A stretch of 64,000 nucleotides of DNA from an uncultured bacterium (GTDB lineage Bacteria > Chloroflexota > UBA5177 > JANWHV01). Shown piece by piece: positions 3-53,534 of the stretch. Under the pieces are notes generated by a model. It had not been told where the DNA came from. It searched no databases and was given only the letters and a program-made list of their open reading frames with translations. The stretch lies in the NCBI GenBank assembly GCA_963827235.1, contig CAWHAE010000011.1, positions 63,414-127,413 of the forward strand, given 5' to 3'. Positions within the stretch are counted from its first letter, which is position 1, and every line of letters starts with the position of its first letter. The translations under genes and the position numbers were made by a program.

Positions 3-1166
3 CCCGCGGCGCTGGCGCACACGCTCAGCGAGAGCTTCTCGAACTGGCAGGTGAACGGCGCCGAGGTGCGCCTGCAGTTCACGGTGCCCGACCGCGAGGC
101 GAAGCGGCTCAGTGCTGACGGCAAGGAGCTGCCGTCGAACGAGGCGCTGGGCCGGTACATCGCCGAGCACGTCGGCGCCACGGCAGGCGGGCGCGACTGC
201 CCGCGCACCGAGGGGCCGCGGCCGATGAGCGCGATCGCAGACTTTCACCGCTACGAGCTCATCTACAAGTGCTCCTCGGCAGACGCGATCCACCTGCACT
301 CCTCGGTGCTGTTCGAGAAGGTCGCCTCGCACACCAATTTCGCCAAGATCCAGTCGGCCGACGGCGAGCTGTTCGAGCAGCTGATCATCCGCGACAACCA
401 GGACGTGCCTGCCTCCGGCGGCGCCGGCGAGAACGTGCTCGCGAGCGCCGGCTTCCTGAAGTTCATCGAACTCGGGCTGATGCACATCTTCACCGGCATC
501 GACCACATGTCGTTCATGCTGGGCTTGGTGCTGATCTCGCGGCGCGTGCGCGACCTGCTGTTCGTGGTCACGGGCTTCACGCTCGGCCACAGCGTGACGC
601 TCGGGCTCGCTGTCACCGGCATCCTGCGGCCCAATGCCGCCTACATCGACGCGCTCGTGGCGCTCACGATCGCGCTGATCGGCGCCGAGAATATCGGCGA
701 CTCGACGCAGCGTCCGCTGCCCGTGGCGCTCAGCCTCGGCGGCCTGCTGCTGACCTTCGCCGTGGCCAGGCTGCTTGGCTTCCCGGTCACCCTGCCGACG
801 TTGCTGCTCGTGGGCGGCGGCATCTTCTCGCTCAGTTACCTGCTGCTCACCGGCCACATGCGCGACGCCGGGCGCGTGCGGCTCGTGGTGACGCTGGTGT
901 TCGGGCTGATCCACGGCTTCGGCTTCGCCTCGAACCTGCTCGAGATGCAGCTCCCGCCGGGGCGCATCGCGGAGCTGCTGTTCGGCTTCAACCTGGGCGT
1001 GGAACTCGGCCAGGTGACCGTAGTGCTGACGGCGCTGGCCGCAGCCTGGGCGCTCGTGAAGCTGCGCCTCGCCCTGCCGCGGCCGCTGTTCACCGACATC
1101 GCCGCGGCCTTCCTCGTGGGCGAAGGCCTCTATTGGTTCGTGGGCCGCAGCGTGGCGCTCGGCTAG
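3..1166 (+). CDS. HupE/UreJ-family membrane protein with N-terminal periplasmic domain (5' end outside window)
   Basis: Frame is open from position 3 (..PAALAHTLSES, signal-peptide end). Motifs GLMHIFTGIDH, FTLGHSVTL, FGLIHGFGFA and FNLGVELGQ are typical of HupE/UreJ. Confidence 0.85.
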   Translation, partial: PAALAHTLSESFSNWQVNGAEVRLQFTVPDREAKRLSADGKELPSNEALGRYIAEHVGATAGGRDCPRTEGPRPMSAIADFHRYELIYKCSSADAIHLHSSVLFEKVASHTNFAKIQSADGELFEQLIIRDNQDVPASGGAGENVLASAGFLKFIELGLMHIFTGIDHMSFMLGLVLISRRVRDLLFVVTGFTLGHSVTLGLAVTGILRPNAAYIDALVALTIALIGAENIGDSTQRPLPVALSLGGLLLTFAVARLLGFPVTLPTLLLVGGGIFSLSYLLLTGHMRDAGRVRLVVTLVFGLIHGFGFASNLLEMQLPPGRIAELLFGFNLGVELGQVTVVLTALAAAWALVKLRLALPRPLFTDIAAAFLVGEGLYWFVGRSVALG

Positions 1167-1169
1167 CGC

Positions 1170-2232
1170 CTAGACCGTGGGCCGCGTGCCGTCGAAGGCG
1201 CGCTGCAGCAGTACGCGGATCGCGCCGCGCTCGACCGGCCGCGGGTTCCAGTACGGGTTCGAGGCCGCGATGTCGGCGGCCTTGTCGAGGTCTTCGGCCT
1301 TCATGCCGATGTCGCGCAGCGCATATGGCGCGCCGTTGTTGCGCGCCAGGTCGTAGAGCGCCGCGCCCGGCGTGGCACTGCCGAGCGCCCGGCCCATGCG
1401 CGCCAGCGCCTCAGGGATCGCCGGCGCGTTATAGGCGATGGCCTGCGGCAGCACCACGGTGTGCACCTCGGCGTGCGGCAGGTTGAAGCTGCCGCCGAGC
1501 GTGTGGCAGAGCTTGTGGTGCAGCGCCATGCCGACGTTGCCGAGCACCACGCCGCACAGCCAGGCGCCGTAGAGCGCCTGGGAGCGCGCCTCGATGTCGC
1601 GTCCGTCGCGCCTAATGCCCGGGATGGCGCTCGCGATCGCGCGGATGCCCTCCTCGGCCATCAGGCTCATGATCGGGTTGGCGTCCTGCGCATAGAGGCC
1701 CTCGGCCGCGTGCGCGATCGCGTTGAGCCCGCTGGTCACCGACATCTGCGGCGGCAGGCTGAACGTCAGCTCGGGGTCGTAGATGACCGTGCGCGGCAGC
1801 ACGCGCGGGTCGCGGCCGGTCTTCTTCAGGCCCGCCTCGGTGATTCCGTAGATCGGCGTCATCTCGGAGCCCGCGTAGGTCGTGGGGATCGCGATGATCG
1901 GCAGGCCCGAATCCATCGCGATCGCCTTGCCGAGGCCCGTGGTCGAGCCGCCGCCGATGGCGACCGCACAATCGGCGCCGAGCTGGCGCGCCACTTCGCG
2001 CGCCTCGCGCGCTGTCTCGATCGGCACATGCATGACCGCGCGCGCAAATACGCCCACGGCGCGCGCGCCGAGCCGGTCGGCGACGCGCTGCAGCGTCGCC
2101 CGCCTGCTCGGGCGTGGATAGCACCAGCGCCTTCGTGGCGCCTAGCTTCTCGATTTCTTCGGGCAGGCGCGCGATGGCGCCCGGCCCGAATATCACGCGC
2201 GAGGGCGCGGCGGTGTAGATGAAATCCTTCAC
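1170..2232 (-). CDS. hapF: Maleylacetate reductase (iron-containing ADH family); one frameshift near 2095
   Basis: GTG 2232 after AGGAGG. MKDFIYTAAPSRVIFGPG joins GGGSTTGLGKA, PTTYAGSEMT, HHKLCHTLGGSFNLPHAEVH and NPYWNPRP. Confidence 0.92.
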
Positions 2233-2260
2233 GCGAACCTCCTGACCCCAAGCTACGCCT

Positions 2261-3790
2261 TCAGCGCTGATACCACGGCGCAAGTTGCGCGTCGACGTTG
2301 ACCCACACCGACTTCACGGTCGTGTATTCGCGCATCGCCTCGAAGCCCATGTCGCGCCCGTACCCCGACTGGCCGACGCCGCCGAAGGGCGAGCCCGGAT
2401 GCACGCGCTTGTAGCTGTTGATCCAGACCATGCCGCTCTTCATCTCGCGCGCCATCTTGTGGGCGCGCGCGAGGTTGCTGGTCCACAGGCCGCCGCCCAG
2501 CCCGTATTCGGTGCCGTTGGCAATCTGCAGCGCTTCTTCGTCGTTCTTGAAGGTGAGCACCGTCACGAAGGGGCCGAAGACCTCCTCCTGGGCGACCGTG
2601 TCCTTGTAGCTCTTGGCGCGCACGACTGTGGGCTCGATGTAGAAGCCCTTGGCGAGCGCCGCATTGTCGGGGCCCTTGCCGCCCGTGATGACATCGCCGC
2701 CCTCGGCGCGCGCCTTGGCGACGTAGCCGAGCACGCGGTCACGGTGCAGCGCGCTGGTGAGCGGGCCCATCTCGGTGCCGGCATCGAGCGGGTTGCCGAG
2801 CCTGATCGACTTCGCCAGCGTCGTGAAGCGCTCGAGGAACTCGTCGGCGATGCGCTCGTGCAGCACCAGGCGCGAGCCGGCGATGCAGGCCTGGCCCTGG
2901 TTGTGGAAGATCGCCCAGGCCGCGCCATTGACGGCCGCGGGCAGGAAGGCATCGTCGAACACGATGTTGGCACCCTTGCCGCCGAGCTCGAGCTGCACCT
3001 TCTTGAGGTTGCCGGCCGAGGCCTGCACGATGCGCCGCCCCGTGGGCGTCGAGCCCGTGAAACAGATCTTGCCGATCTCGGCGTGCTCGGCGATGTACTG
3101 GCCGGCGACCGCGCCCAGGCCCGGCAGCACGTTGACCACGCCGTCGGGCACGCCCGCCTCGGCCATCAGCTCGGCCATGCGCAGCGAGGAGAGCGGCGTG
3201 ATCTCGGCGGGCTTCAGGACGATGCAATTGCCCGCCGCCAGCGCCGGCGCCATCTTCCAGCTCGTGAACATCAGCGGGAAGTTCCACGGCACCACCTGGC
3301 CGACGACGCCGATCGGCTCGCGCAGCAGGTAGTTGAGGAAGCCGCTCTCGACCGGCACCACCGAACCCTCGAATTTGTCGGCCATGCCGCCGAAGTAGCG
3401 GAAGCACAGCGCGGTGCGCGGCACGTCGAGTGCGCGCGAATCGCGCAGCGGGTGGCCGGTGTCGAGCGATTCGAGGCGAGCGAGCTCCTCGGTATTCGCC
3501 TCGATGAGGTCGGCGAGCCGCAGCAGGATGCGGCCGCGGTCGCTCGCGCCCATGCGGGCCCATGCCGGGAACGCGGCCTTGGCGGCAGCCACGGCCTTGT
3601 CGACGTCGGCCTTGCCGGCCATCGCCACGTCGGCGATCGGCGAGTTGTCGTGCGGATTCACCGAGGTCAGCGTCTCGCCGCTTTCGGCATCGACGAACTT
3701 GCCGCCGATGAACAGCTGGTGCTGGATGGTCTTCTTCAGGCCCGCAGTTTCCTGGGCGCGCTGGATGTTGCTGGCGTTGCTGGTGTTCAT
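2261..3790 (-). CDS. hapE: NAD-dependent aldehyde dehydrogenase, likely 4-hydroxymuconic semialdehyde dehydrogenase
   Basis: ALDH motifs PWNFP, FTGSTPTG, LELGGK, NQGQACIAG and EEVFGP. Lies between the HQ dioxygenase genes and maleylacetate reductase. Confidence 0.88.
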   Translation of the reverse strand: MNTSNASNIQRAQETAGLKKTIQHQLFIGGKFVDAESGETLTSVNPHDNSPIADVAMAGKADVDKAVAAAKAAFPAWARMGASDRGRILLRLADLIEANTEELARLESLDTGHPLRDSRALDVPRTALCFRYFGGMADKFEGSVVPVESGFLNYLLREPIGVVGQVVPWNFPLMFTSWKMAPALAAGNCIVLKPAEITPLSSLRMAELMAEAGVPDGVVNVLPGLGAVAGQYIAEHAEIGKICFTGSTPTGRRIVQASAGNLKKVQLELGGKGANIVFDDAFLPAAVNGAAWAIFHNQGQACIAGSRLVLHERIADEFLERFTTLAKSIRLGNPLDAGTEMGPLTSALHRDRVLGYVAKARAEGGDVITGGKGPDNAALAKGFYIEPTVVRAKSYKDTVAQEEVFGPFVTVLTFKNDEEALQIANGTEYGLGGGLWTSNLARAHKMAREMKSGMVWINSYKRVHPGSPFGGVGQSGYGRDMGFEAMREYTTVKSVWVNVDAQLAPWYQR

Positions 3791-3829
3791 GGTGACCCGC
3801 ACGGGTTTGGGAGGACGGAAGGCAGAGTA

Positions 3830-3990
3830 GTATAGCCCGTCACGACTGCGACGTACTGCTTGCCGTTCACCGAACGGGTGACCGGCGCGGAGCCGGCCAT
3901 ATCGCGCAGCCGCACCAACTACAGCTCGGAGCCATCGGCGGTGTCGTAGGGCCGGAACAGGCGATCCAGCGCGCCCGCGAACACGATGTC
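3830..3990 (-). pseudogene. Remnant of the C-terminus of a PQQ-dependent (quinoprotein) dehydrogenase
   Basis: Manual translation: DIVFAGALDRLFRPYDTADGSEL*LVRLRDMAGSAPVTRSVNGKQYVAVVTG. This is a PQQ-ADH C-terminal pattern with a stop at the conserved Trp. Confidence 0.7.
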
Positions 3991-4112
3991 GCGGCCGCGT
4001 CCGGCGCACCCGGCGGAGTTACTGTCTGGTGAAGACAACCTCGCAGGTGCCTGCCGATTCGGGCCGCAGCCTCCATCGGCGCGGGAGGGGCTGGTAAAAG
4101 TGCATCATCAGC

Positions 4113-4418
4113 TTAGTGCGACTCGAAGTCGGCCGAGCGCCGCTCGGTGCGCAGCGGGCCCACCAGGCCCCTGAAACGCTGGTGCAGAGGATGCACCTCA
4201 TAGCCCTCGAGCGCCTGCCAGCTGTCGAACTCGGTGTAGAGCACGAGGTCGGCAGCGTCGGCGCCGGGCAGCTGGTTGACGCCCAGCTCCAGGCGCAGCA
4301 GTCCGGGCACGCCCGCGCGCATCGCCTCGGCCTGCTCGCGCATCTGCGCGAGATCGAGCGGTTGGCCGTCGGCCATGGCCGCGGGCTTGAGCTTCCACAT
4401 AACGACATGATGGATCAC
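4113..4418 (-). CDS. Dabb (stress-responsive A/B barrel) protein
   Basis: GTG overlaps the cobT stop (GTGA). [11 protein letters not shown]...[23 protein letters not shown]. Confidence 0.8.
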
Positions 4419-6233
4419 GGCCTGGCTCGCGGTCTTGGCGGGGCGCGCCGACGCGCGCCGGGCCGCTCGAACAGCTCGAGCAGCTGGCCGACGATCGCCT
4501 CGCCCAGCGTATCCGAATTGGCGAGCGTCACGGCGCGCCGGTAATAGCGCGTCACGTCGTGACCGATGCCGATGGCCACGAGCTCGACCGGCGAGTGCTG
4601 CTCGATCGACTCGATCGTGGCCTGCAGATGCCGCTCGAGGTATTGCGGGTCGTTGGCATCGAGCGTCGCGTCGTCGAGCGGCGCGCCGTCGGAAATCACG
4701 ATCAGGATGCGACGGCGCTCGGGCCGGCTCATCATGCGCGCGTGCGCCCAGAGCAGCGCCTCGCCATCGACGTTCTCGCGCAGCATGTTTGAGTCGAGCA
4801 TCAGGCCGAGGCACTGGCGCGCGCGGCGCCAGGGCTCATCAGCCGACTTGTAGACCACGTGCAGCAGTTCGCTGACCCGGCCGGGGTTCGCCGGCCGGCC
4901 GGCCGCGACCCACTGCGCGCGCGCGCGCCCGCCGCGCCAGCCGCGCGTGGTGAACCCGAGGATCTCGGTCTTCACGCCGCAACGCTCGAGCACGCGGCCA
5001 AGCAGCTCGGCGCACAGTGCCGCGTTGGCGATCGGCACGCCGCGCATCGAGCCGGAATTGTCGATCAGCAGCGTCACCAGCGTGTCGGGGAATTCGCGCT
5101 CCTGCTCGATCTTGTAGGCTGAGCGGCTCGAAGGGATGCGTGACCAGGCGCGTGAGGCGCGCGGCATCGAGCACGCCTTCCTCGAGGTCGAACTGCCAGT
5201 AGCGCGTCTGCAGCGACTGCAGCCTGCGCTGCAGCTTGTGCGCCCAGCGCACCGCACCGTCGAGGCGGTTACCCACCAGGCGATCGAGCTCCTGGCGCAT
5301 GCGCTCGAGCGTGGCGGCATCGCGCATCGTCGCGGCGCGCTCGATCGCATCGAACTCGGTCGTGTAGATGCGATAGAGCGGGTAGGCCTGCGCAGCCTTC
5401 CCCCGGTGCCGGCGGCGGCTCGGGCTCGCGCAGCTGCACGCTGGCCAGCGGGTCGCCGGCGTCGGAGGTCTCTTGGATATCGCCACCGGCCTTCTCGACG
5501 CGCTGCGCGCGGTGCTCGGCCGGCGGCACGTCGGCGTCGGGCTCCTGGCTTTGCTGCGGCTGCTCGGATTTCGCGGCGCCTGCGAGGAAGGCCGCGATCA
5601 CGCTCAGCGACTGGCGCGCATAGGCCTGCTGGTCGCCGACCAGCTCGCGCAGCCGCTCCACCTCGGCCGGCTCGGCCTCGCGCAGCCAGCTGCGCCAGCC
5701 CTCGCGCAGGCTGGCGCGCGCCTGCTCGGGCAGCGGCGCATCGAGCGCGCCGCGCACCAGCAGCGCGAGCGTCTCGAGCCAGGCGGTCGGCGAGCTGCGC
5801 AACATCGACTCGGGACGCGAGCGCAGCCAGCGCTCGTGCGCCAGGCTGCCGAGGTTCTGCCGGGCGCCCGGGAACTCGCGCCCCGCCAGCAGCTCGACCC
5901 GCACCTGCTCGAGCAGCGAATAGAGCGTGCGCTCGGTGCGCGTCTGGGGCTCGAAGCGCGCGTAGCGGAGCCGGGTCGCTGTAGCGCTGCCGGAATGCGA
6001 GTGAATCGATGCGCCCGCGCCAGCGGCTGAGCGCCTCGGGCTTGGGCTGGCGCGGCAGCTCGGCCAGCACCATCTGCCAGTTGGCGCGCATTGCGCGCGG
6101 CCGGCTCGAGCGCGAGCGCCGCGCCCGGCGGCGTCGCGAGCGCGCGATACACGGCGCCGGTCGCCTCGCCGAGGCGCTGCGCGTCGCCGGTGCCCGCGCC
6201 CGCGCCGTGTTCCGCTACATCCGGACGCATCAT
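4415..6233 (-). CDS. cobT: CobT-like vWA protein; frameshifts near 6070, 5410 and 5120
   Basis: Segments [39 protein letters not shown] (MIDAS), [22 protein letters not shown] and [11 protein letters not shown]. Confidence 0.85.
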
Positions 6234-6267
6234 GGCAGCCGCCTGGACGGCCCGCCTGCCGCTCGGC

Positions 6268-7267
6268 TCAGAACTCGACCGGATACGGCGGGATCTCGCC
6301 GGCCTCGTGCATGCGCGGCAGGTCGGGGTTGGCGTTCTCCCAGACCAGCAGCATCGAGCGCTTGCGCGAATAGCCCTGGTGGCGAATGTCGGCCGGCATC
6401 GCGGCCACGTCGCCGGCCTTCATGCGCACCTTGGCGCGCGGGGCGCCGGTCTCGCGGTCCTCGATTTCCCAGTCGATCTCGTCGCTGAACTGCAGGAACC
6501 ATTCGACGCGATCGTTGCCATGCTTGATCGGCAGGATGTATTCCTCGGTGGTCGGGCAGAAGAGGCTGCGACCGCATACCGAGGTCACCGACGGGTTCCA
6601 CGTCACGTCCGAGCGCGACAGGTAGGCGAACAGGCTGAAGGCGTGGATCTTGCCCTCGAAGCCGGGTTCGGCCTCGATCACCGGCTCATTCTGCGGCACG
6701 TCGGCGAAGGCGCGATTCACGGGGTAGCCGTTCTTGTCGCTGCGCAGGCCGGCGTCGCCCGGGATGCCCGGCATGCGCTTGCACACCTCGCGCTCGCGCT
6801 CGATGGCCGCCTTGTTCTCGCCGTTCTTCGGGCCGATCCAGGCCTGGCCGGTTTCTTGCGGGGCAGCGAACGGGTCGAAGCCCTGGCTGGTCCAGTCGTC
6901 GAGGATCGCCTTGAACGTGGCCATGATGATTGGCGTGTCGAAGGTCTCGAGGATGTCGAGGCCCTTGTCATGGTATGCGGGGTGGAAGCGGCCGGCATAC
7001 ATCTCGACGCGCCCATAGAGGTTGCGCGTGCCGAACACCGCGTCGAAGTTGACCCAGCCGTAGAAGAAGCCCCAGGCGACGTCGCGCATCATCGCGCGCA
7101 GGAAAGCGTCGGCCGAAATGATGTGCGTCATCTTCTGGCCCTTGGCCTCCCACTCGACGCGCACGAAATACTCGTCACGGCTGAAAGTGAAACCGCCCAG
7201 CTGGAAGCTGCGGTAACCGGTCAGGTTACTGCCCGGAGTGGCTCGTACTGCGATTCTGCGTGCTCAT
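6268..7267 (-). CDS. hapD: Hydroquinone 1,2-dioxygenase large subunit, copy 1 (frameshift about 15 nt after ATG)
   Basis: FLRAMMRDVAWGFFYGWVNFD, CPTTEEYILPIKHGNDRVEWF and MPADIRHQGYS. The N-terminus GYRSFQLGGFTFSRDEYF lies upstream of the ORF-track start. Confidence 0.92.
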
Positions 7268-7324
7268 TGGATACATCCTCCTAATGCTGTGTCTGGTTGC
7301 GTCTGCGGGAAGGGAGCGCGCCCG

Positions 7325-7831
7325 TCAGGTGTAGCAGATCTCCGACCACTTCTCGACCGTCTGCTCGCCGACGATAGTCTGTATCAAGAACACACCCGGC
7401 TTCGCCGACTTGAAGCGGTAGGCGGCGCCCTGCGGCAGCAGTACCTGATGGCCGCGGCCCATCTTCACGCGGCCCATGCGCTGCCCAGCCGGCTCGCCGG
7501 CGAGCTTCTGCGAGCCTTTCTTGCCCTGCGCAACCACGCTCTCGGGCGTGGCAAGCTGAACAAGCTCGACCTCGATGTCGCCATCCATCACCAGCGCGAA
7601 CTCGTCGTGCGCGGCGGCATACCAGTTGGAAGTGCCCTCGGCGCGCACGGCCTCGATCACATACTCGAGGTTCTTGGCGACCGCCACTTTCTCGTAGGGC
7701 TTGGATTTCGACGCAACTTCGAACACGTTGGAGAACGTGTAGTACTTCGGGTTGTCGTTGATGATCTCGAGGTCACCTTTCTGGTAGTCGGCCAGTGACC
7801 CAAACACCGTGTTGTACTGCTGCTTGCTCAT
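7325..7831 (-). CDS. hapC: Hydroquinone 1,2-dioxygenase small subunit, copy 1
   Basis: TVFGSLADYQKGDLEIINDNPKYYTFSNVFEVASKSKPYEKVAVAKNLEYVIE. Confidence 0.92.
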   Translation of the reverse strand: MSKQQYNTVFGSLADYQKGDLEIINDNPKYYTFSNVFEVASKSKPYEKVAVAKNLEYVIEAVRAEGTSNWYAAAHDEFALVMDGDIEVELVQLATPESVVAQGKKGSQKLAGEPAGQRMGRVKMGRGHQVLLPQGAAYRFKSAKPGVFLIQTIVGEQTVEKWSEICYT

Positions 7832-7910
7832 CGCACATCACCCCATATTGACCGTGCAAATAATCGGTGAATGTCGCCGGGCGGCCCGGCCTGCTGGCTG
7901 GAGGGGTCGA

Positions 7911-8361
7911 TCAGACCCTCAGCCAAGGACGCCACCACGGGACCATGCTGAACATGACCAGATAGACGATCGAATAGCAGGCGAGCGCGATGCCATAGCG
8001 CGCGCTGTCGGACCAGCGCTTGCGGCCGAGCACACCGCCCGCAACGTGCATGCCGATGAAAGCCACGGCCATCACCGAGCCGTGCCGCACCCCGAAGAAC
8101 TCGACTTCGGAGTCCCGCAGGAGCCGCATCGCCCGTACTGAGCGCGATGGTCGTGAGCGGGCTCACGACCAGGTAGAGCGCCGCGCCGAGCAGCACCTGA
8201 ACGTCGACAGCGCGCAGGAACAGCTTGTTGAGCAGCGCGCCGCGCGGTGCCCAGGGTTGCCGGCGCACGAGTCCCCAGAGCAGCGCGAACAGCACCATTG
8301 CACCGCCGCCGATCACCGCCCAGCGCCAGGCCCCATGCAGTCTCAGCAGCAGCAGATACAT
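7911..8361 (-). CDS. Four-TM membrane protein with conserved His residues (cytochrome b-like hypothetical); frameshift near 8130
   Basis: LHGAWRW..., DVQVLLG, FFGVRHGSVM...GMH and PWWRPWLR, spread over two frames. Confidence 0.6.
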
Positions 8362-8454
8362 CGGTGTCGCCCCGCTCGCTTTCCTGCGTGGAATTGTAAC
8401 TGGGAGGCTTGCATTCCGTGCTGATGGGAACTGCCCTTTGGCGGCTAGCCGGCC

Positions 8455-8967
8455 TCAGGGCGCCGGCGCGGAGGAATTGGTGAAGGCGATGTAGCGGCCG
8501 CCGAAGATCACCGCGATCCACAGTGCCAGCGAGATCACAGAGATCACCTTGGCAAGGCTCGAAGTCTCCACCTTGTCCTGCCACCGATCGAGGTTCGTGA
8601 ATACGCCGAGCTCGAACCAGAGTGCATTCACGCCTGCGAGCAGGATGAACAGCAGCTTCCAGCGGAACGAGGGGTTGAACGCGTAGATGAACGGGTCGTG
8701 CATGAAGAACAGCACACCGCTGATCAGGTTCAGGCCGAAGCCGACCCAAGCCAGCGGCAGCAGACGGTGCAGGGGCCGGATTGGCAGCGACCTGGCCAGG
8801 CCCAGGGCGCGCAGATCGAGCAGGCCGACGATGCCGATCACCATCGCCATGCCGCAGAAATGCAGCGACTGCAGGGTCGGGAAGACCCACCAGTTGGAGC
8901 GCACGAACTCGCCGGGCGGCAGCGACTTGATCCACTCCAGGACGGGATAGTTGCTCGAGAGATCCAT
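8455..8967 (-). CDS. DUF6644-like membrane protein
   Basis: WVFPTLQSLHFCGMA, DLRALG, NPSFRWKL and SLALWIAVIFGGRYIAF. Confidence 0.75.
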   Translation of the reverse strand: MDLSSNYPVLEWIKSLPPGEFVRSNWWVFPTLQSLHFCGMAMVIGIVGLLDLRALGLARSLPIRPLHRLLPLAWVGFGLNLISGVLFFMHDPFIYAFNPSFRWKLLFILLAGVNALWFELGVFTNLDRWQDKVETSSLAKVISVISLALWIAVIFGGRYIAFTNSSAPAP

Positions 8968-8982
8968 GTTCTTGCCCCTCTC

Positions 8983-9486
8983 CTATTCGCCGACGCCGAT
9001 GTCGCCGTAAGTGTTGTAGGCCAGCCAGCGGCCGACGAAGATGGCGCTCGCCCATGCCAGCAGCGAAACCACGGCCAGCACTTTGGCCTGCGGCGGCGCG
9101 TCCGCGTCCCCGGCGGCGTACTCAGTGGTCTTGTTGAGCACTGTCGCGGTGATCCTCGCGCCCATGATCAGGCCGACGGCGATGAGCAGCAGCTTGGAGC
9201 GGAACAGCCAGCTGTAATAGTCCTTCTTCGCGTCGATGACGAACAGCATCACGCCGGACATGGCATTGCACCAGAAGCCGATCCAGACCACGGTCATCAG
9301 CTTGCGCAGGCCCGGCAACGCCGCGCCCTTGGCAAAGCCAAGCACACGCAGATCTATGACGACGAGCAGACCCACCAGCAGCGCCAGGCCGATCGAGTGC
9401 GCCGTGATCACAAGCGGATAGGCCGTCTCCTGGACCCACGTCGCGAACGCGCTGTTCTGCAGTGCCAAAAGTGTGTCGTCAAACAT
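8983..9486 (-). CDS. DUF6644-like membrane protein (paralog)
   Basis: YPLVITAHSIGLALLVG, DLRVLG, FRSKL and SLLAWASAIFVGRWLAY. Confidence 0.75.
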   Translation of the reverse strand: MFDDTLLALQNSAFATWVQETAYPLVITAHSIGLALLVGLLVVIDLRVLGFAKGAALPGLRKLMTVVWIGFWCNAMSGVMLFVIDAKKDYYSWLFRSKLLLIAVGLIMGARITATVLNKTTEYAAGDADAPPQAKVLAVVSLLAWASAIFVGRWLAYNTYGDIGVGE

Positions 9487-9627
9487 GACTTGGACCTGCC
9501 CTACTATGTTGTTGCTGTCCTGTCTGCCGGGCCGGAATGCAGCCTGCGCTCCTCGCGCCGCCGTCCTCCTCGAGCCTCGGGCGTCGGGCACGGCCCGCCG
9601 ACGATTGCCCGCCGGCGACTGCTTCGC

Positions 9628-10020
9628 TCAGCCGAAGGTGCCAGCCCACTTCCAGCCGTCGGACAGACGCTCGATGGAGCTCATGCGGATACGATGGTCG
9701 GCAGGGTTGCGGCCCGGGTTGCCGGTGATCTTCACCTTGTCGCCCGGCTTGAGGGTGTCATGTTTGACGCCCGCGTCGCCGAGCGCGCCACCTGCACCCC
9801 ACTCAACCGCCCAGCGCTGCATGACGCCGTTTTTGTCGGGCGCCATCACGTGCACGAAGGAGTGCGGATTGCGGAACAAGAATTGCACCACCGTGCCCTC
9901 GATCGTCACCTTCTCGTCGACCACGTAGGTGGCGGGGAACGAATGATGTGCCTGCACCGGTGCGACGGTCACCGCGCCCATCAGCGCGGCGCCAGCCAGA
10001 ATGCCGATAAACCTCTTCAT
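9628..10020 (-). CDS. DUF6152-like periplasmic protein
   Basis: Signal peptide followed by AHHSF, then NPHS, WAVE and LKPGDKVKITGNP. Confidence 0.8.
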   Translation of the reverse strand: MKRFIGILAGAALMGAVTVAPVQAHHSFPATYVVDEKVTIEGTVVQFLFRNPHSFVHVMAPDKNGVMQRWAVEWGAGGALGDAGVKHDTLKPGDKVKITGNPGRNPADHRIRMSSIERLSDGWKWAGTFG

Positions 10021-10046
10021 CTAGATTCTCCTAGCCGCGCGATCTG

Positions 10047-10076
10047 ATAGTTAATAACTTTCTACACAGTAACTAT
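10047..10076. promoter_or_regulatory. AT-rich operator-like inverted repeat (ATAGTTA...TAACTAT, overlapping AGTTA-A-TAACT)
   Basis: Seen directly upstream of the DUF6152 gene. Related motifs occur at 13055-13065 and 17285-17295. Confidence 0.5.
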
Positions 10077-10209
10077 TGGGGTCGAACATATCCACTGGCC
10101 GCGATGTTACATGGAAATGATGGCGGCGTCGCCTTCCCGCGGGCAACATACGCACTTATGCTGCATTGCGAGCGCCCTGGGGAGGCGGCTGCACCGGCGT
10201 GGCAGGGTC

Positions 10210-10977
10210 TCAGCCGCCGTGCGCCTTGCGCGTGCGTTCCTTCAGTTCGCGCAGCACGCGCAGCTCCTCGGCCGTTGGCGGCGGCGTTTCGCCGACCCGG
10301 GCCGCATACTTGAGCGGCCAGCCGCAGTTGGCCTGCAGTTGTTCGCGCGCCACGCCCCGATGGATCGAAACCACTGTCATTTCACGCGTTTCGGCGTCCG
10401 GCTCGAGCACGCACAGGTCGGTGATCAGGCGCGTCGGCCCCTTGGTCTTCAGGCCCAGGCGCTGGCGGTGATCGCCGCCGGTGCCATGACCCAGCGAGGT
10501 GATGAAGTCGAGGCTCGCGACATAAGATCGCACGCCCATGGCCATGGTGATGAACACCTCGCCGCATTGGCTGGCGATTTCCGGTGCGCCGCCGCCGCCG
10601 GGCAGGCGCACCTTCGGCTTCGCGTAATCACCCACCACCGTCGTGTTGAGATTTGCGAAGCGGTCGATCTGGGCGCCGCCGAGGAAGCCCACGGTGATGC
10701 GCCCGCCCTGCAGCCAGTAGCGGAACATCTCGGGGACCGAGACAGTGTTGAGCGCGGTGTCGCACAGCTCGCCGTCGCCGATCGACAGCGGCAGCACCGC
10801 AGGCCTGGTGCCGATCGTGCCCGACTCGTAGATCAGCGTGATATCCGGCGCGTGCGTGAGGCGCGCCAGGTTGCAGGCCGCCGACGGCGCGCCGATGCCG
10901 ACAAAGCAGACGTCGTCGTTGCGCAGCGCGCGCGCGGCCACCACGGTCATCATCTCGTTCCCGGAATAGGGGCTCAT
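10210..10977 (-). CDS. pcaJ: 3-oxoadipate CoA-transferase subunit B (CatJ/GctB type)
   Basis: CFVGIGAPS, LIYESGTIG, FLGGAQIDRFANLNTT and RLPGGGGAPEIA. Confidence 0.88.
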   Translation of the reverse strand: MSPYSGNEMMTVVAARALRNDDVCFVGIGAPSAACNLARLTHAPDITLIYESGTIGTRPAVLPLSIGDGELCDTALNTVSVPEMFRYWLQGGRITVGFLGGAQIDRFANLNTTVVGDYAKPKVRLPGGGGAPEIASQCGEVFITMAMGVRSYVASLDFITSLGHGTGGDHRQRLGLKTKGPTRLITDLCVLEPDAETREMTVVSIHRGVAREQLQANCGWPLKYAARVGETPPPTAEELRVLRELKERTRKAHGG

Positions 10978-11805
10978 GCCCCTGCCCCCTGCTGCGCGAG
11001 CACGTTGGCCTTCATCCAGGCCAGAAAGCTGTCGCGCTCGCGCGCGATCTTGTCCCAGGCGATGTAGAAGCCGTTGTCACGCTGGTAATAACCGTGCGCA
11101 TAAGATGGATGCGCCCCGCGCGGCGCAATGACAATGGCGGTGATCGTCCACGAAGGCAGGATCACGGCATTGAAGGATCGGGGCCCCAGATCCTCGACGA
11201 TCTCCTCGACCGTGACGATCGAGCGCTTCGCGGCCAGCACCGCCTGCTTCTGCACGCCGACGATGCCCTCGAGCAGCACGTTGCCCTGGGCGTCAGCCTT
11301 CTGCGCGTGGATCACTGCCACGTCGGGGCGGATCGCCGGCACCGCGGCCAGCACCTCGCCGGTGAACGGGCAGGTCACGCTGCGGATCAGCGGATTGACC
11401 TTCGGCAGGTCGGCGCCGACGTAGCCGCGCAGCATCGCGAACGGCAGGTTGGCGGCGCCGGCAGTCATAGGCATTGGCCATCGCCGCATGCGAATGCTCG
11501 ACGAGCGCCAGCGGATTGGGCCAGCCGTTCTCGACGGCATCGCGTAGCCGGTGCAAGCTGCCCACGCCGGGATTGCCGCCCCAGGAGAACACCAGCCGTT
11601 CGGCGCAGCCCATGCCAATCAACTGGTCGTAGATCAGGTCGGGGGTCATGCGGTACAGCGTCAGGCGCTTGCGCGCCCTGGCGGATCACCTCGTGGCCCG
11701 CGGCGAACGGGATCAGGTGTGTGAAGCCCTCGAAGGCGACGCTGTCCCCGTCATGGATGCACTCTTCGACTGCCGCGGCGAGCGATAGCACCCTGGCCCG
11801 ATTGC

Positions 11806-11809
<4 letters not shown>
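10974..11809 (-). CDS. pcaI: 3-oxoadipate CoA-transferase subunit A; frameshifts near 11670 and 11465
   Basis: EGFTHLIPFAAGHE, MTPDLIYDQLIG, FSWGGNPGVGSLHRLRDA, CPFTGE and HPSYAHGYYQRDN. Confidence 0.88.
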
Positions 11810-13023
<1,214 letters not shown>

Positions 13024-13290
13024 GGTGATCCTGTGTGCCCCAGGCGTGGACCGGTATTAATAACTCGCCGATAATAAATGAAATTTGGCCCCGGCGGCAG
13101 GTGCGGCGGCGGGCGACGAGTTCTATGCGGTCTCCTCGGGCCTCAGGCGCATCTCCGCCGTCGGTTGCAAGGAAATCGCCAAACCGCTGCGCTTCGAGCA
13201 GTTCACGGGGTTAACGTCCGACAACGTGTACGCCAGCGCCGGGGGGGCCGGTGCACTGCGAGGCGCACCGGCCTTCTTCATGGCGCGGGC

Positions 13291-14275
13291 TTAAGCAGTG
13301 GGCAGCTCGGTGCCGAAGACGCGCTGGTAGAGCTCGGCGACCGTGGCGCGCTCGGCCTCGTCGCACTTGTTGAGGAACGAGAGCGCGAAGGCGCGCTCCA
13401 TGGGCTGGAACAGCTGCGCGTTCTCGGCCCAGTGGATCACCGTGCGTGGCGACATCACAGTCGAGAGTTCGCCGGCCATGAAGGCCGTGCGCGTGAGCCC
13501 CGCGAGCGCCACCAGGCGCGCCACGACCTCGCGCCCGGCTGGCGTATCGTAGGCGGGCACCCGCGCAAGCACGATCTGCTGCTCGGCCGCGGCGGGCAGG
13601 TAGTCGAGCGTGGTGACGATTTGCCAGCGGTCCATCTGCCCCTGGTTGATCGGCTGCGTGCCGTGATACATGCCGCTCGCGTCGCCGAGGCCGATCGTGT
13701 TGGCGGTCGCGAACAGCCGGAACGCCGGGTGCGGATCGAGCACGCGGCTCTGGTCGAGCAACGTGAGCTTGCCGTCGGCCTCCAGCACACGCTGCAGCAC
13801 GAACATCACGTCGGGCCGGCCGGCGTCGTATTCGTCGAGCACCAATGCGACGCAGCGCTGCAGCGCCCAGGGCAGGATGCCCTCGCGGAACTCGGTGACC
13901 TGCTGGCCCTCGCGCAGCGTGACGACATCCTTGCCGATCAGGTCAATGCGACTTACATGGCCGTCGAGGTTCACGCGCACGCATGGCCAGTTGAGGCGCG
14001 CGGCCACTTGCTCGATGTGGCTCGACTTGCCGGTGCCATGGTAGCCCTGGACCATAACGCGGCGGTTGTACATGAAGCCCGCGAGGATCGCGAGCGTGGT
14101 GTCGCTGATCGAAGCGGTAGGCCGGATCGACGGCCGGCACGTGATCGCTGCGCACGCTGAACGCCGGGCACACAAGGTCGCTGTCGACGCCGAAGGTCGC
14201 GCGCACCGAAGCGCTCGTGTCGGGCACCGAAGCAAGAAGCTCCGGCTCGGTGGGCGTGACGGGCCGGCGCGCCAT
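13291..14275 (-). CDS. cobS: CobS-like AAA+ ATPase; frameshift near 14107
   Basis: [11 protein letters not shown], Walker A GYHGTGKS, Walker [34 protein letters not shown] and [12 protein letters not shown]. Confidence 0.9.
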
Positions 14276-14644
14276 CAGCCCTCACCCACGCGAATCTCGC
14301 CGCCCGCGACCTCGATCGGCACGCGGTCGAGGCCCATGCCCTGGGCCGGCCCCTCGGTGCAGAAGCCGTCGTGCAGCCGGAAGACCGCGCAATGGTAGGC
14401 GCACATCACGCGTTCTCCGGGCAGCAGCAGGAACTTGTCAGGCTGGGAATTGAGCGGCAGCGAGAAATGCGGGCAGTTGTTCACCCAAGCACGCACCTGC
14501 GCACCCTGTCGCCAGACGCAGGACGCTGAAGGCGTTTTCGTCGTCGCCATACTTGACCTCGCGGCACGCGCCTTCGGGCACGGCATCGAGGCGACATAGC
14601 AGGCTGCCCGGCGCGGGCGCCAGTCGGTGGGAGTTCCAGGCCAC
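14275..14644 (-). CDS. Rieske [2Fe-2S] ferredoxin; frameshift near 14520
   Basis: NNCPHFSLPL and CAYHCAVFRLHDGFCTEGP. The stop abuts the cobS start codon. Confidence 0.85.
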
Positions 14645-14703
14645 GTGGGAGCGGAAGTCGACCCGGACTGGTGCCAGTGCGCTTAAGGGTAGCCTGCTCC
14701 CGC

Positions 14704-15714
14704 TCAGAACTCGACCGGGTAGGGCTTCAGCTTGCCCGACTCGTACATCTCGGGCAGGCCCGGGGAGGCGTTCTCCCAGACGAGCAGCATCGAGCGCTTC
14801 TTCGAGTAGCCCTGGTGGCGGATGTCGGCCGGCATGGCCGCCACGTCGCCGGGCTTCATCTTCACCTTGGCGCGCGGCGCGCCGGTGTGCTTGTCCTCGA
14901 TCTCCCACTCGATCTCGTCGGAGAGCTGCACGAACCATTCGACGCGATCGTTGCCGTGCTTGATCGGCAGGATGTATTCCTCGGTGGTCGGGCAGAAGAG
15001 GCTGCGGCCACAGACCGAGGAGACCGAGGGGTTCCACGTCACGTCGGAGCGCGACAGGTAGGCGAACAGGTTGATCGCATGCACCTCGCCCTCGAAGCCG
15101 GGCTCGGCCTTGATGACGGGAGCATCCTGCGCGACGTCGGCGAACGCGCGGTTAACCGGGTAGCCGTTGGCATCGCTGCGCAGCTCGGCGTCGCCCGGGA
15201 GGCCCGGCATGCGCTTGCAAGCCTGGCGCTCACGCTCAATCGCGACGATGTTGCTGCCGTTCTTGTGGCCCACCCACGCGGTGCCGGTTTCTTCAGGCGA
15301 GGCGAAGGGATCGAAGCCGGCGTTGGTCCAGTCGGCCATGATGGCCTTGAAGGTCGCCATGACCAGCGGCGTGTCGAAGGTCTCGACCCTGTCGAGGCCC
15401 TTGTCCTTGTAAGAGGGATGATAGGTGCCGCAGTACACCTCGACCCGGCCGTAGAGGTTGCGCGTGCCGACCACGGCGTCGAAGTTGACCCAGCCGTAGA
15501 AGAAGCCCCAGGCGACGTCGCGCATCATGGCGCGCAGGAAAGCGTCGGCGGAGACGATGTGGGTGAGTTGCTGGCCCTTGGCCTCCCACTTGACGCGTAC
15601 GAAATACTCGTCGCGCGAGAAGTTGAAGCCGCCGAGCGTGAAGCTGCGGTAACCAGTCTGGTTGCTGGCCGGCGAAGCCTGGACCGCTGGCTCCTGGACC
15701 GTCTGAGTGCTCAT
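14704..15714 (-). CDS. hapD: Hydroquinone 1,2-dioxygenase large subunit, copy 2
   Basis: Close paralog of 6268-7267. HGNDRVEWF and DIRHQGY metal-ligand motifs are intact. Confidence 0.93.
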   Translation of the reverse strand: MSTQTVQEPAVQASPASNQTGYRSFTLGGFNFSRDEYFVRVKWEAKGQQLTHIVSADAFLRAMMRDVAWGFFYGWVNFDAVVGTRNLYGRVEVYCGTYHPSYKDKGLDRVETFDTPLVMATFKAIMADWTNAGFDPFASPEETGTAWVGHKNGSNIVAIERERQACKRMPGLPGDAELRSDANGYPVNRAFADVAQDAPVIKAEPGFEGEVHAINLFAYLSRSDVTWNPSVSSVCGRSLFCPTTEEYILPIKHGNDRVEWFVQLSDEIEWEIEDKHTGAPRAKVKMKPGDVAAMPADIRHQGYSKKRSMLLVWENASPGLPEMYESGKLKPYPVEF

Positions 15715-15804
15715 GGCTATGCCCTCAATACTTTGAATGAGTCGCGAAGAAAAATGTGCAGCAGATTCAAGCGCTGGTGCCGCGAACGCGAATCACCTGC
15801 ATTT

Positions 15805-16314
15805 TCACTTGTAGCATATCTCGGCCCATTTCTGCACCGAGAGATCGCCCATGATCGTCTGCATCATGATGACGCCGGGCTTGCTCGGGCTGCGGAAGCG
15901 GTAGGCGGCGCCTTTAGGCAGCAGCACTTGGTGGCCGCGGCCAGCCTGCACCACGCCCATCTTCTTGCCCTGCGGTTCGCCCTTCACGAGCACGGCACCC
16001 TTCTTGTCGGGGGCCACGACGCTGTCGGGGGCATCGAGCTTGACCAGATCGACCTCGACGCAGCCATCCATGACGAGCGCGAATTCGTCATGCGCGGCCG
16101 CGTACCAGGGCGAGTTGCCCTCGGCGCGCAGCGTCTCGATCACGTATTCGAGGTTGATCGCGACCACGACTTTCTCGTACGGCTTCGATTTGGCCGCCAC
16201 GTCGAACATGTTCGAGAAGGCGTAGTGCATCGGCTTGTCGTTGACGATCTCGAGATCGCCTTTCGCGTAATCGGCCAGAGAGCCGAACACCGTCGTGTAT
16301 TGCTGCTTGCTCAT
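15805..16314 (-). CDS. hapC: Hydroquinone 1,2-dioxygenase small subunit, copy 2
   Basis: MSKQQYTTVFGSLADYAKGDLEIVND...; paralog of 7325-7831. Confidence 0.93.
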   Translation of the reverse strand: MSKQQYTTVFGSLADYAKGDLEIVNDKPMHYAFSNMFDVAAKSKPYEKVVVAINLEYVIETLRAEGNSPWYAAAHDEFALVMDGCVEVDLVKLDAPDSVVAPDKKGAVLVKGEPQGKKMGVVQAGRGHQVLLPKGAAYRFRSPSKPGVIMMQTIMGDLSVQKWAEICYK

Positions 16315-16694
16315 CGTCATCACCCCGCTAACGATCGCCTTGTAAGAAACGAAGTGCCAGGCAACCGGCCCTCCGGAAGCGTCGCGCAGCACCGCCCTCG
16401 AGACCCGGCGGTGTGCGTCGCAGCAATGGCCCTGTACCTCACCGTGCCCCTCCTCGGGAGCGTTGCCACATTAAGGCGCGAGTCCTTCCGCCCTAGGTGC
16501 GCTTCGCGGCGCGTGCGCTCGCGTCGCGGCAGGAACCTGGAACCTGGAACGGCTCGCGACAGATCACGTCGGGCACGGCACCACGGAATGGCGGCCGCCT
16601 CCCGATGGACGAACACTGGGATTGTAACTGAGGAGTCAGGAATCCGGAAGCGCTTGCCCCACCGTCGCGGTGGCGGCTCCCGGTGTGTGGGGCT

Positions 16695-17267
16695 TTACAG
16701 AACGAGGCGCACGATGTCGCGCACGTACTTGCGGTCGGAGGCCGCCGTGCTGCGCAGGCCACCCAGGTATACGTGCATGTAGCGCGCCTCGATGGCGCCG
16801 AGCATGGTATCGGCGGCCGCCAAGGCGGCCGCCGCAGGTACCGCCTTCGAGCGCGCCAGCCACTGCGTGAGCGCCGCGCGCAGCCGCAGCAGCATCGGAT
16901 CGGCCTTGCTCTTGCCGCGCACCTTGGTCGGCCGCTTCCGCACGCCGGCGGAAATAAGCATGAACAGCGCTGGAACCGCTATCGCAAAGTAGGAATTGAG
17001 GCCAGTGAGGATCGCCACCAGCTGCTCGTCAACCGGCGCTCTTTGGATCGGTCCACGTTGTAGCTGCATCAGCTCGGGCGGATCGTCCGGCCAGAGCGCC
17101 ATCATCAACAGCTTGTCTTTTGTGCGCACGCGGTGAAAGATCGATGCCGGGCTGACCTTCAGCCGCTTGGCGATCACGCCCACCGAAACCTGAGGGCCTT
17201 TCTCGAGGAAAACGCGGCGCGCGGTGGCAACCAGGTCCTCGTCGCTCACCTGCTTGGGTCTGGCCAT
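16695..17267 (-). CDS. TetR/AcrR-family transcriptional regulator
   Basis: MARPKQVSDEDLVATARRVFLEKG...IAKRLKVSPASIFHRVRTKDKLL. Confidence 0.85.
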   Translation of the reverse strand: MARPKQVSDEDLVATARRVFLEKGPQVSVGVIAKRLKVSPASIFHRVRTKDKLLMMALWPDDPPELMQLQRGPIQRAPVDEQLVAILTGLNSYFAIAVPALFMLISAGVRKRPTKVRGKSKADPMLLRLRAALTQWLARSKAVPAAAALAAADTMLGAIEARYMHVYLGGLRSTAASDRKYVRDIVRLVL

Positions 17268-17344
17268 AGCGGAAACCTTCCTTGAGTTAGTAAGTGGTGA
17301 TCAAGAATGGCACGAGCGACGCGCCGGGGCAAATCCGGCGACAG

Positions 17345-17531
17345 CGGGGAAATGGAGCAGCGTGATCGGCGATGCCAAGATGATGACGGCGTTGCTATGG
17401 CCGGCTAACCCGTCGCTGCGCCATCATCGAAACCGGCAATGACAGCTACCGATTCAAGAATAGAAAATAGCCCTGCACTCCTGGTAAATCTTGGACGCTG
17501 GTAGCTGGTCAAAGTTGGACGCCCGTTGACA
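17345..17531 (+). mobile_element. IS21-family remnant: decayed istB 3' end plus right terminal repeat
   Basis: Translates as GKWSSVIGDAKMMTALL / [22 protein letters not shown], similar to the istB C-terminus at 52799. The reverse complement of 17480-17531 (TGTCAACGGGCGTCCAACTTTGACCAGC...) matches 52637-52688. Confidence 0.85.
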
Positions 17532-17813
17532 CGCGATGGTTTTGGTGCACCTAGGCGGCATCGGGTAGGCTAGCGGGCCGGCTCTGCGCCAGGTGTCGGA
17601 TGTTGATGAAACCTATCGCCCAAGATCCGATCTACTGTAAACGTAGTTTCGACACCGACATCATCGAACTCTGCGATGGCGGTAGCGTTCTTGTTGCTAG
17701 CCAGTACTGGGCAACTTCGTACGCGCTGGATCGCGCGACGTGCGTAAATGGGGTTTGGCCGTGGTGGCCAAGCGAATAGCAGTAGTCGTTATCCTTTCCG
17801 GTGGTATTGAGTC

Positions 17814-18194
17814 ATGAAAATCTGGGGCGCGGCACTTGCATTGACGCTGCTGTTCACGATCGACGCCGTGGCTCACCACTCGGAAGCGGCTTTTGATCAA
17901 GACCAGATCATCACCGTGAGCGGTACGGTGAAGGAATACCTGTGGATCAATCCTCATGTTCTGATCTACCTCGAGATCAGCGATGCCCGCGGTCGATCCG
18001 ATGTGACCATCTTTCAGGGAGGTCCTCCCGTCGACATGAAGCGCGCAGGCTGGTCACGGGATTCCCTGAAGGCGGGTGACAGGTTAACGATCACCTATTA
18101 CCCGAGGCGCGACACGAAGCCGGGCGGGATGTTGGTCACTGCAACTCTGACAGATGGCAAGGTGCTGGGTTGGCGATCGGCGACCAAGTCGTGA
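17814..18194 (+). CDS. DUF6152-like periplasmic protein
   Basis: Signal peptide followed by AHHS, then WINPHV and LKAGDRLTI. Confidence 0.8.
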   Translation: MKIWGAALALTLLFTIDAVAHHSEAAFDQDQIITVSGTVKEYLWINPHVLIYLEISDARGRSDVTIFQGGPPVDMKRAGWSRDSLKAGDRLTITYYPRRDTKPGGMLVTATLTDGKVLGWRSATKS

Positions 18195-18246
18195 GCGCCG
18201 TGGCGACCATTCGGTGGCGTGCCTAATCGCCTTCTTGACGTACATC

Positions 18247-30697: not shown

Positions 30698-30704
30698 GGT
30701 CTCA

Positions 30705-36568: not shown

Positions 36569-36637
36569 GGCGGGCGTGCCTGGGCACGATTCGGTAGATA
36601 TCCATTAGATATCAGAGGGGGGCGATCGAAGCAAGAG

Positions 36638-36783: not shown

Positions 36784-36810
36784 CCGGAGATGGCCCGAGT
36801 AGGCCCGATC

Positions 36811-53524: not shown

Positions 53525-53534
53525 CGGCAGTCTC

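Follow-up and report, generated by a model that had tools for sequence, protein, structure and literature searches.

A CobS/CobT-like pair built into hydroquinone dioxygenase clusters: a possible activase of a ring-cleavage dioxygenase apart from the cobalamin chelatases

What is a relative of the cobalt chelatase motor doing in a gene cluster for the breakdown of hydroquinone (HQ)? This question is raised by a stretch of 64,000 nucleotides from an uncultured bacterium (assembly GCA_963827235.1, contig CAWHAE010000011.1, positions 63,414 to 127,413), which we call the window throughout. Judged by its gene families, the window holds a catabolic supercluster for the HQ pathway, with two predicted PnpCD-type dioxygenases, an aldehyde dehydrogenase (family Aldedh), a maleylacetate reductase, a 3-oxoadipate CoA-transferase and a thiolase. 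Built into this supercluster are a diverged CobS/CobT-like pair (together CobST), a Rieske ferredoxin and a protein of the Dabb family (stress-responsive alpha/beta barrel). A first-pass annotation of the same DNA had described two HQ dioxygenases, with a Rieske gene and cobS after copy 2, and cobT and a Dabb gene after copy 1. All of these genes are present, and the tight junctions that it reported hold in the sequence: the stop codon of the Rieske gene runs into the start codon of cobS (TGATG at 14277-14273), the cobT ATG at 6233 lies 34 nucleotides past the copy-1 large-subunit stop at 6268, and the Dabb gene touches or overlaps the cobT stop at 4415. The genes concerned are all on the minus strand, and cobS and cobT are about 7 kb apart, unlike in most relatives. 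Our preferred reading, based on sequence comparison and analogy, is that the pair may be an activase or metallochaperone of the HQ dioxygenase, built into the HQ operon and working without a cobalamin chelatase. We give this reading only slightly less than an even chance.

The linkage of the pair to the dioxygenase was followed in three scans: CobS against species genomes, CobT against metagenomes, and the HQ large subunit against species genomes. The large-subunit search yielded 80 species-level loci, 15 of which have CobS within 10 kb. These 15 loci all come from Steroidobacteraceae-like or unclassified Gammaproteobacteria, including the isolate Povalibacter uvarum DSM 26723 (locus L171), and they fall among the 30 closest large-subunit matches, the top seven included. 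Their usual gene order is small-large-(Aldedh)-Rieske-CobS-CobT-Dabb. No CobS was found near the HQ large subunit in the loci of Burkholderia, Paraburkholderia, Cupriavidus, Achromobacter, Binatia and Myxococcales, and no CobT in three HQ genomes from outside the Gammaproteobacteria. Two Steroidobacteraceae metagenome-assembled genomes (MAGs) whose first HQ locus lacks CobST carry it elsewhere, one of them in a second complete HQ cluster.

The CobS scan returned two gammaproteobacterial loci, L005 (82% identity) and L006 (77%), together with 78 loci of alphaproteobacterial type at 70-75%, in which no HQ, Rieske or Dabb match was found. L005 reads small-large-Rieske-CobS (331 amino acids)-CobT (613 amino acids)-Dabb, followed by Aldedh, maleylacetate reductase and intradiol dioxygenase, and L006 reads Aldedh-Rieske-CobS-CobT. 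In the metagenome scan, eight loci hold a CobT at least 51% identical to that of L005; seven of these have the HQ large subunit and seven the Rieske gene, and the locus without the dioxygenase is a 5.9-kb contig. The other 72 loci of that scan gave no HQ, Rieske or Dabb match. Overlaps of four nucleotides join CobS to CobT and CobT to Dabb in L169, L178 and L005, and CobS to CobT only in L171. Among plasmids, a collection searched with the CobT of metagenome contig L088 gave a best match of 43%, with all matches of alphaproteobacterial type and no clade member on a known plasmid. In nearly every case the clade's CobST shares an operon with the dioxygenase, and the stop and start codons of neighbouring genes often overlap. 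The linkage, whose conservation the first-pass annotation had named as a check, is kept across a deep clade: 15 genome loci and 7 metagenome loci have adjacent or overlapping CobS and CobT genes next to the HQ dioxygenase. The linkage survives several rearrangements and a drop in CobT identity to 37-50%.

The same annotation had called for a phylogeny against true chelatase proteins, and in it the HQ-linked CobS and CobT form a clade of their own, apart from alphaproteobacterial CobST. The CobT tree has 46 rows; in it, a lone CobT from genome G055 and the 20 HQ-linked proteins make up one side of a branch with ultrafast bootstrap (UFBoot) support of 100 and Shimodaira-Hasegawa-like approximate likelihood ratio test (SH-aLRT) support of 99. 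This split is present in 100% of 200 bootstrap trees, and alphaproteobacteria with and without CobN are intermixed. In the CobS tree (48 rows), 23 rows including the window's CobS lie on one side of a branch with support 99/96. Furthermore, the HQ-linked proteins tested fall below the NCBIfam equivalog cut-offs, which are 558.55 bits for TIGR01650 (CobS) and 759.05 bits for TIGR01651 (CobT). HQ-linked CobS proteins score 534.7, 515.2, 554.2 and 398 bits, and the AAA part of the window's CobS alone 478.6; HQ-linked CobT proteins score 532, 454.3, 526.7, 582.4 and 292.9 bits. Three alphaproteobacterial controls, with or without CobN, pass both cut-offs (CobS 601-625 bits, CobT 829-916 bits). In architecture and motifs, the HQ-linked proteins are those of a chelatase motor, with CobS_N plus an AAA+ domain in CobS and an N-domain plus a vWA MIDAS domain in CobT. 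All 23 CobS proteins compared retain both Walker motifs (A and B), and all 20 CobT proteins retain DxSxS. The window's CobS, 82% identical to the intact CobS of L005 by tblastn, has both Walker motifs and matches the families AAA_5 and CbbQ_C. By these motifs the machinery looks functional.

What the pair lacks is a cobalamin chelatase partner. The window's genome (7.98 Mb, 95.9% complete) has one CobT_C and one CobS_N, and family searches of the whole genome gave no match to CobN (PF02514) and none to CbiC/CobH (PF02570). The absence of cobN that the first-pass annotation had noted in 64 kb is therefore borne out and extends to the genome, and the neighbours of the pair are HQ-pathway genes. 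Nor is the clade as a whole linked to cobN: CobN was not found in the carrier genomes G005 and G006, and of 14 further carriers, 9 have no CobN-family match, the isolate Povalibacter uvarum (6.3 Mb) being one of these 9. Four CobN-family genes from the remaining carriers were looked at. Three are CobN-like and lie between a TonB receptor and ExbB, and one is BchH; by family and context, these four are not cobalamin CobN. When ChlI/ChlD were considered as alternative partners of the CobN-family genes, the strong matches were only ComM-like and none stood beside CobN. Genome G068 has two CobS/CobT pairs. One is HQ-linked (L195), and the other (L251, G068:C164:1-9000) has a B12 context, 3-5 kb from genes for BtuR/CobO, a His-phosphatase, cobalamin-5-phosphate synthase and a dimethylbenzimidazole phosphoribosyltransferase (DMB-PRT). 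In the tree, the CobT of the B12-context pair stands as sister to the HQ clade on a long branch. Because the HQ-linked pair is located in the HQ operons of soil gammaproteobacteria that have no B12 chelatase partner for it, it probably serves the Fe-dependent dioxygenase.

Some of these loci merit a remark of their own. The three CobN-like genes (L246 7909-11802, L247 8126-12100, L248 7287-11675) stand beside a TonB-dependent receptor, ExbB/MotA and DUF2149; their clusters, in three Steroidobacteraceae-like genomes, are predicted to be of a scavenging type and not for corrin synthesis, and the genes are presumably HmuS-like. L249 (G063:C26:40000-59900), in the genome of carrier L178, is a photosynthesis cluster with puhA, pucC, bchL/N/B, bchH and bchF. 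G068 offers a natural contrast of HQ-linked and B12-context CobS/CobT within one genome.

The presumed client belongs with the type II two-subunit PnpCD/HapCD dioxygenases, having both subunits, the PnpD N-domain and a cupin with conserved columns. The copy-2 large subunit matches the solved PnpD over its full length (PDB 4zxa_W, E 1.4e-154), and also the TTNP3 enzyme (5m21). H252, N254, E258 and H299 (L171 numbering), reportedly the iron ligands in the PnpCD structure, are invariant in 35 rows, both window copies included. The two copies in the window are 80.7% identical in their large subunits and about 71% (70.5%) in their small subunits, and are therefore old paralogues rather than a fresh duplication. 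Two HQ dioxygenase copies occur in three genomes, namely the MAG that holds L173 and L179, G069 (L175 and L253) and that of the window. In the two-copy MAGs, CobST is joined to only one copy; in the window the pair is divided, with cobS behind copy 2 and cobT behind copy 1.

The Rieske protein had been claimed as part of the CobST module, and this claim fails. The family is found in 62 of the 80 HQ loci. Of the 65 loci that have no CobS, 48 carry it, in most cases after an intradiol dioxygenase gene. Because so many HQ loci without CobS carry it, the Rieske protein is, as far as comparison of the loci tells, a general and little-discussed member of HQ clusters rather than a CobST-specific partner. 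Its signature is CPHF...MCAxH, and CxH...CxxH is present in 22 of 22 clade members. In Burkholderia, Paraburkholderia, Cupriavidus and Achromobacter, the last gene of the HQ cluster encodes a small Rieske ferredoxin of this family (CPHF...MCAHH; L196-L245, for example L202 14062-14337 and L219 13990-14307). Neither a Rieske protein nor a ferredoxin turned up in a term search of papers on pnp or HQ clusters (PMC4871426, 10.1101/749879, PMC3871574, PMC3727088). Where CobS is present, the Rieske gene is directly upstream of it in 14 of 15 genome loci and in all 7 clade metagenome loci that hold CobS. Dabb, whose closest solved relatives are proteins of unknown function, is found in 8 of the 15 CobS-bearing HQ loci and in 0 of the 65 others; it is missing from the group L184, L185, L188 and L195, where CobT ends the operon.

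A motor of this kind could answer a known weakness of the enzyme. Extradiol-type and HQ dioxygenases are short-lived, as their Fe(II) is oxidised or lost. We propose that a CobS hexamer, with CobT as its vWA/MIDAS adaptor, could form an ATP-driven accessory factor (an ‘activase’) of the HQ dioxygenase. Its task would be to put the labile non-haem Fe(II) in place or swap it, or else to remodel molecules of the enzyme that O2, H2O2 or substrate have inactivated. The Rieske ferredoxin may supply the electron for repair of Fe(III) to Fe(II). For the TTNP3 enzyme, passages of PMC3222310 report loss of activity in O2 or air and with H2O2, partial restoration by Fe(II) plus ascorbate, and suicide inactivation by the substrate hydroquinone; they also cite ferredoxin-mediated reduction, the XylT idea, as a repair route for HQ dioxygenase, and mention that HQ dioxygenases were purified in active form. 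As for the motor, a portion of 10.64898/2026.10.09.757910 describes CobS as a MoxR ATPase like NorQ and CbbQ, groups NorQ/NorD, CbbQ/CbbO and CobST together, and depicts the vWA finger of CobT as threading the CobS pore while the MIDAS face points to the presumed client. The observation is real once assembly errors, discussed below, are allowed for, and its interpretation is supported as far as comparative genomics reaches. This support does not extend to the mechanistic core: that the pair would load or repair Fe(II) is a plausible inference. We are more hesitant about the fuller version, argued by analogy, in which a dedicated dioxygenase activase would renew non-haem Fe(II) together with the Rieske and Dabb proteins and CobS/CobT motors would not be tied to tetrapyrrole chelatases; it is possible, with chances distinctly short of even.

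Any such role presupposes intact genes. The first-pass annotation was right that cobS, cobT and the Rieske gene are present, but they are not single open frames in the window sequence. The frame changes near 14104 in cobS, near 14518 in the Rieske gene and at 6088, 5970, 5395 and 5118 in cobT, so that the CobS N-domain and AAA domain are in different frames and the pieces of CobT spread over three. These six breaks, together with the unusual 7-kb separation of cobS and cobT, are what one would expect if the three genes were decaying pseudogenes and the split marked loss of the system. We consider this very improbable. Metagenome contig L088 is 95.6% identical to window positions 146-7406 (7.26 kb) and shares the junction from large subunit to CobT, and its CobT is one intact frame of 601 amino acids. 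In a base-level alignment of the two, there are ten one-base indels, every one of them a base that the window has in excess (listed in the table); some of these bases are intergenic. Those at 7255, 7272 and 7291 disturb the start region of the copy-1 large subunit, and that at 2092 breaks the maleylacetate reductase gene. A CoA-transferase subunit is broken likewise (sites at about 11475 and 11675), and the TonB receptor at 18154-20408 is split into three open reading frames (ORFs). The base at 11675 is missing from contigs of four soil or peat runs, and related run contigs show 2-3 gaps across the cobS/Rieske region (13985-14835); at the cobS break, a single extra C divides two in-frame stretches. 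No sequencing run shares more than 25% of the window's words, and six metatranscriptome runs share 9-16%. The 9% ‘contamination’ figure of the genome would also fit split genes. One-base insertions thus occur in the window at roughly 1.4 per kb and in one direction only, which points to insertion errors of long-read assembly rather than gene decay, and we regard the organism's own genes as intact. The insertions will fragment gene predictions made on this genome.

If the genes are intact, the pair might still have nothing to do with HQ. It could be an ordinary cobaltochelatase-type motor, or serve the orphan function of its alphaproteobacterial relatives, and simply be carried along on a mobile catabolic island. 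The conserved core motifs and the Pfam domains CobS_N, CobT and CobT_C would fit this, as would the mobile-element genes near the cluster in the window and the CobN-family genes of some carriers; CobST without CobN is common, being seen in 23 of 48 alphaproteobacterial genomes and in Caulobacter. Such a passenger would hardly be expected to stay linked to the HQ genes across so divergent a clade and through several rearrangements, or to score below the equivalog cut-offs, and the other four genomes in the window's genus do not have the pair. Moreover, the CobN-family genes looked at are not those of cobalamin synthesis, and G068 keeps a separate pair for its B12 context. We regard a role outside the HQ pathway as quite improbable. 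Somewhat less improbable, while still unlikely, is that the pair serves the HQ pathway through another client, be it the Rieske ferredoxin, the Dabb protein or the aldehyde dehydrogenase. The constant position of the Rieske gene just upstream of CobS and the restriction of Dabb to CobS-bearing loci favour this, and so do L006, L087 and L254, where Aldedh-(Rieske)-CobS-CobT is retained on a contig that shows no dioxygenase. Yet the many Rieske genes in loci without CobST argue that this protein has no need of the pair, the L184, L185, L188 and L195 group does without Dabb, and in the window, L088 and L167, CobT or CobS comes directly after the large subunit with no Rieske gene between.

Several observations weigh against the dioxygenase as the client. 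A comparison of 19 CobST-linked with 65 unlinked large subunits yielded a single clade-specific switch column, R282K, and the same comparison of small subunits yielded none, so there is no obvious adapted docking surface on the predicted dioxygenase. CobT itself has few switch columns relative to alphaproteobacterial CobT. A complex prediction with the HQ small and large subunits and the vWA part of CobT (L171 proteins), made without control runs, scored 0.00 and speaks neither for binding nor against it. CobST cannot be generally required by HQ dioxygenases, because 65 of the 80 loci are without it and the enzymes of Pseudomonas, Burkholderia and Sphingomonas work without it. A CobN-family gene is present in 5 of the 14 further carriers, the fifth, beside the four looked at, being in G061. 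In G055, CobS follows the large subunit, but CobT is alone on another contig among unrelated genes; and the stretches L006, L087 and L254, where (Rieske)-CobS-CobT follows Aldedh, hold no HQ dioxygenase. All carriers belong to one bacterial lineage, and the conserved synteny is therefore partly shared ancestry. As the tie between CobST and the dioxygenase comes from gene context, CobST might act on some other product of the cluster. Finally, the comparison with a near-identical contig covers the cobT side (146-7406), and the breaks in cobS and the Rieske gene lie outside it.

Features of the HQ supercluster in the window, in order along the minus strand, and positions of extra bases
Feature	Position in window	Strand	Evidence and remarks
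TetR-family regulator, head of cluster	16695-17267	minus	PF00440, E 2.3e-07
HQ dioxygenase small subunit, copy 2	15805-16314	minus	aligns with small subunits of 29 loci
HQ 1,2-dioxygenase large subunit, copy 2 (PnpD/HapD type)	14704-15714	minus	PF18191, E 4.1e-69
Rieske [2Fe-2S] ferredoxin	14275-14659 (ORF 14275-14586)	minus	PF00355; CxH...CxxH motif; N-terminal part in other frame
CobS-like MoxR AAA+ ATPase	13291-14275	minus	CobS_N frame 13943-14275; AAA_5 frame 13291-14235
Thiolase (3-oxoadipyl-CoA thiolase-like)	11806-13023	minus	Thiolase_N and Thiolase_C
Two 3-oxoacid CoA-transferase subunits	10210-11806	minus	PF01144 twice; upstream subunit over three frames
DUF6152, DUF6644 and two ORFs without family match	7828-10020	minus	PF19649, PF20349; between cluster halves
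HQ dioxygenase small subunit, copy 1	7325-7831	minus	translation and alignment with other loci
HQ dioxygenase large subunit, copy 1	6268-7263	minus	PF18191, E 2e-55; tblastn
CobT-like vWA/MIDAS protein	4415-6233	minus	CobT_C, E 7.6e-82; MIDAS motif DNSGS
Dabb (stress-responsive alpha/beta barrel) protein	4113-4418	minus	PF07876, E 3.1e-17; 58% identical to L005 Dabb
Aldehyde dehydrogenase (likely 4-hydroxymuconic semialdehyde dehydrogenase)	2261-3796	minus	PF00171, E 1.2e-175; 83% to L005 homologue
Fe-ADH family protein (likely maleylacetate reductase)	1170-2232	minus	PF00465 and PF25137; two frames
Extra bases relative to L088	7291, 7272, 7255, 6088, 5970, 5395, 5118, 4080, 4033, 2092		some intergenic

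Between the two halves of the cluster, the two ORFs without a family match are possibly membrane proteins, a guess from their translations. A DUF6152 gene is found both there (9628-10020) and at 17814-18194, just upstream of the TonB-dependent receptor. DUF6152 recurs near HQ clusters of the gammaproteobacterial clade (L086, L167, L170-L172, L174, L176, L177 and L179, and further L184, L185, L188, L195, L252 and L254), and the gene may belong to an uptake system. At the other end, a membrane protein of the HupE/UreJ_2 family, a putative metal permease family, adjoins the cluster on the plus strand (51-1166) and is also seen in L088, L090 and L178; as it recurs in only 3 of 254 loci, we dropped it as a cluster member. 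A promoter and terminator scan of 1000-17600 gave no more signal than shuffled sequence does.

To the right of the cluster, the window has hallmarks of mobile DNA: a ParA-like gene (29121-30188), a MazE/PIN pair (30365-31103) and DUF932 (36598-37572), and further right three tandem tyrosine recombinases (37605-41345), IS21 IstA/IstB (52802-54830) and a Tn3 transposase (58456-61377). Third-position GC content is 0.83-0.95 in the HQ cluster region, higher than in the rest of the window. No CobT was found in the four other genomes of the window's genus, which together with the window's own are the five genomes sampled of its family and order. Because of these relatives without CobT and the mobile-element genes, the HQ-CobST cluster looks accessory in this genome.

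Our literature search found nothing that links CobS/CobT or cobaltochelatase with hydroquinone dioxygenase, and the association is apparently unreported. If the activase reading is true, it would add a new client class to the theme of NorQ/NorD and CbbQ/CbbO, provide the first such chaperone for aromatic catabolism, and possibly improve heterologous expression of pathways that degrade hydroquinone, p-nitrophenol and alkylphenols. It would also give a CobN-less CobS/CobT motor a concrete, genetically linked client, and with it a tractable model for the CobN-less CobST of alphaproteobacteria, for whose wide occurrence no explanation was found in the literature searched. The idea is directly testable because a cultured carrier exists, Povalibacter uvarum DSM 26723.

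Compared with known systems, the window's dioxygenases resemble PnpCD/HapCD/HqdAB in that both copies have small and large subunits with PF18191. They differ in being two paralogous copies in one cluster and in their CobST and Dabb partners, which the characterised clusters of Pseudomonas, Burkholderia and Sphingomonas do not have. The Rieske protein recalls the XylT type of ferredoxin, as a small [2Fe-2S] protein in a ring-cleavage operon whose enzyme suffers Fe(II) oxidation. XylT is a plant-type 4-Cys [2Fe-2S] ferredoxin, whereas the window's protein is of Rieske type (CxH...CxxH, PF00355) and thus falls outside that family.

With the CobNST motor, the HQ-linked pair shares its domains (CobS_N and AAA_5 in CobS; the N-domain and CobT_C vWA in CobT), adjacent genes and kept motifs, and its CobS is 70-75% identical to the alphaproteobacterial proteins. 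It differs in that the window's pair stands among genes for aromatic ring cleavage instead of cob genes, with no CobN and no CbiC, and in that the HQ-linked proteins form a separate clade below the TIGR01650 and TIGR01651 cut-offs. The orphan CobST of alphaproteobacteria, whose Caulobacter genes are essential, is similar in being without CobN: 23 of the 48 alphaproteobacterial genomes have no CobN match, and the Caulobacter control matches CobS_N and CobT_C, not CobN. Those proteins, in contrast, score above the equivalog cut-offs and branch in line with the species tree, and no HQ, Rieske or Dabb gene lies near them. A parallel in organisation is given by NorQ/NorD, which inserts the non-haem FeB into NO reductase, and CbbQ/CbbO, a Rubisco activase. 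In each case a MoxR AAA+ ATPase and a vWA/MIDAS adaptor are encoded beside the enzyme that is matured or reactivated. The HQ-linked pair is of another ATPase and adaptor subfamily, and its presumed client, going by the genes, is a cupin-type Fe(II) ring-cleavage dioxygenase. A CobST-like activase of HQ dioxygenase would thus fit as a variant of the MoxR/vWA maturation and activase theme.

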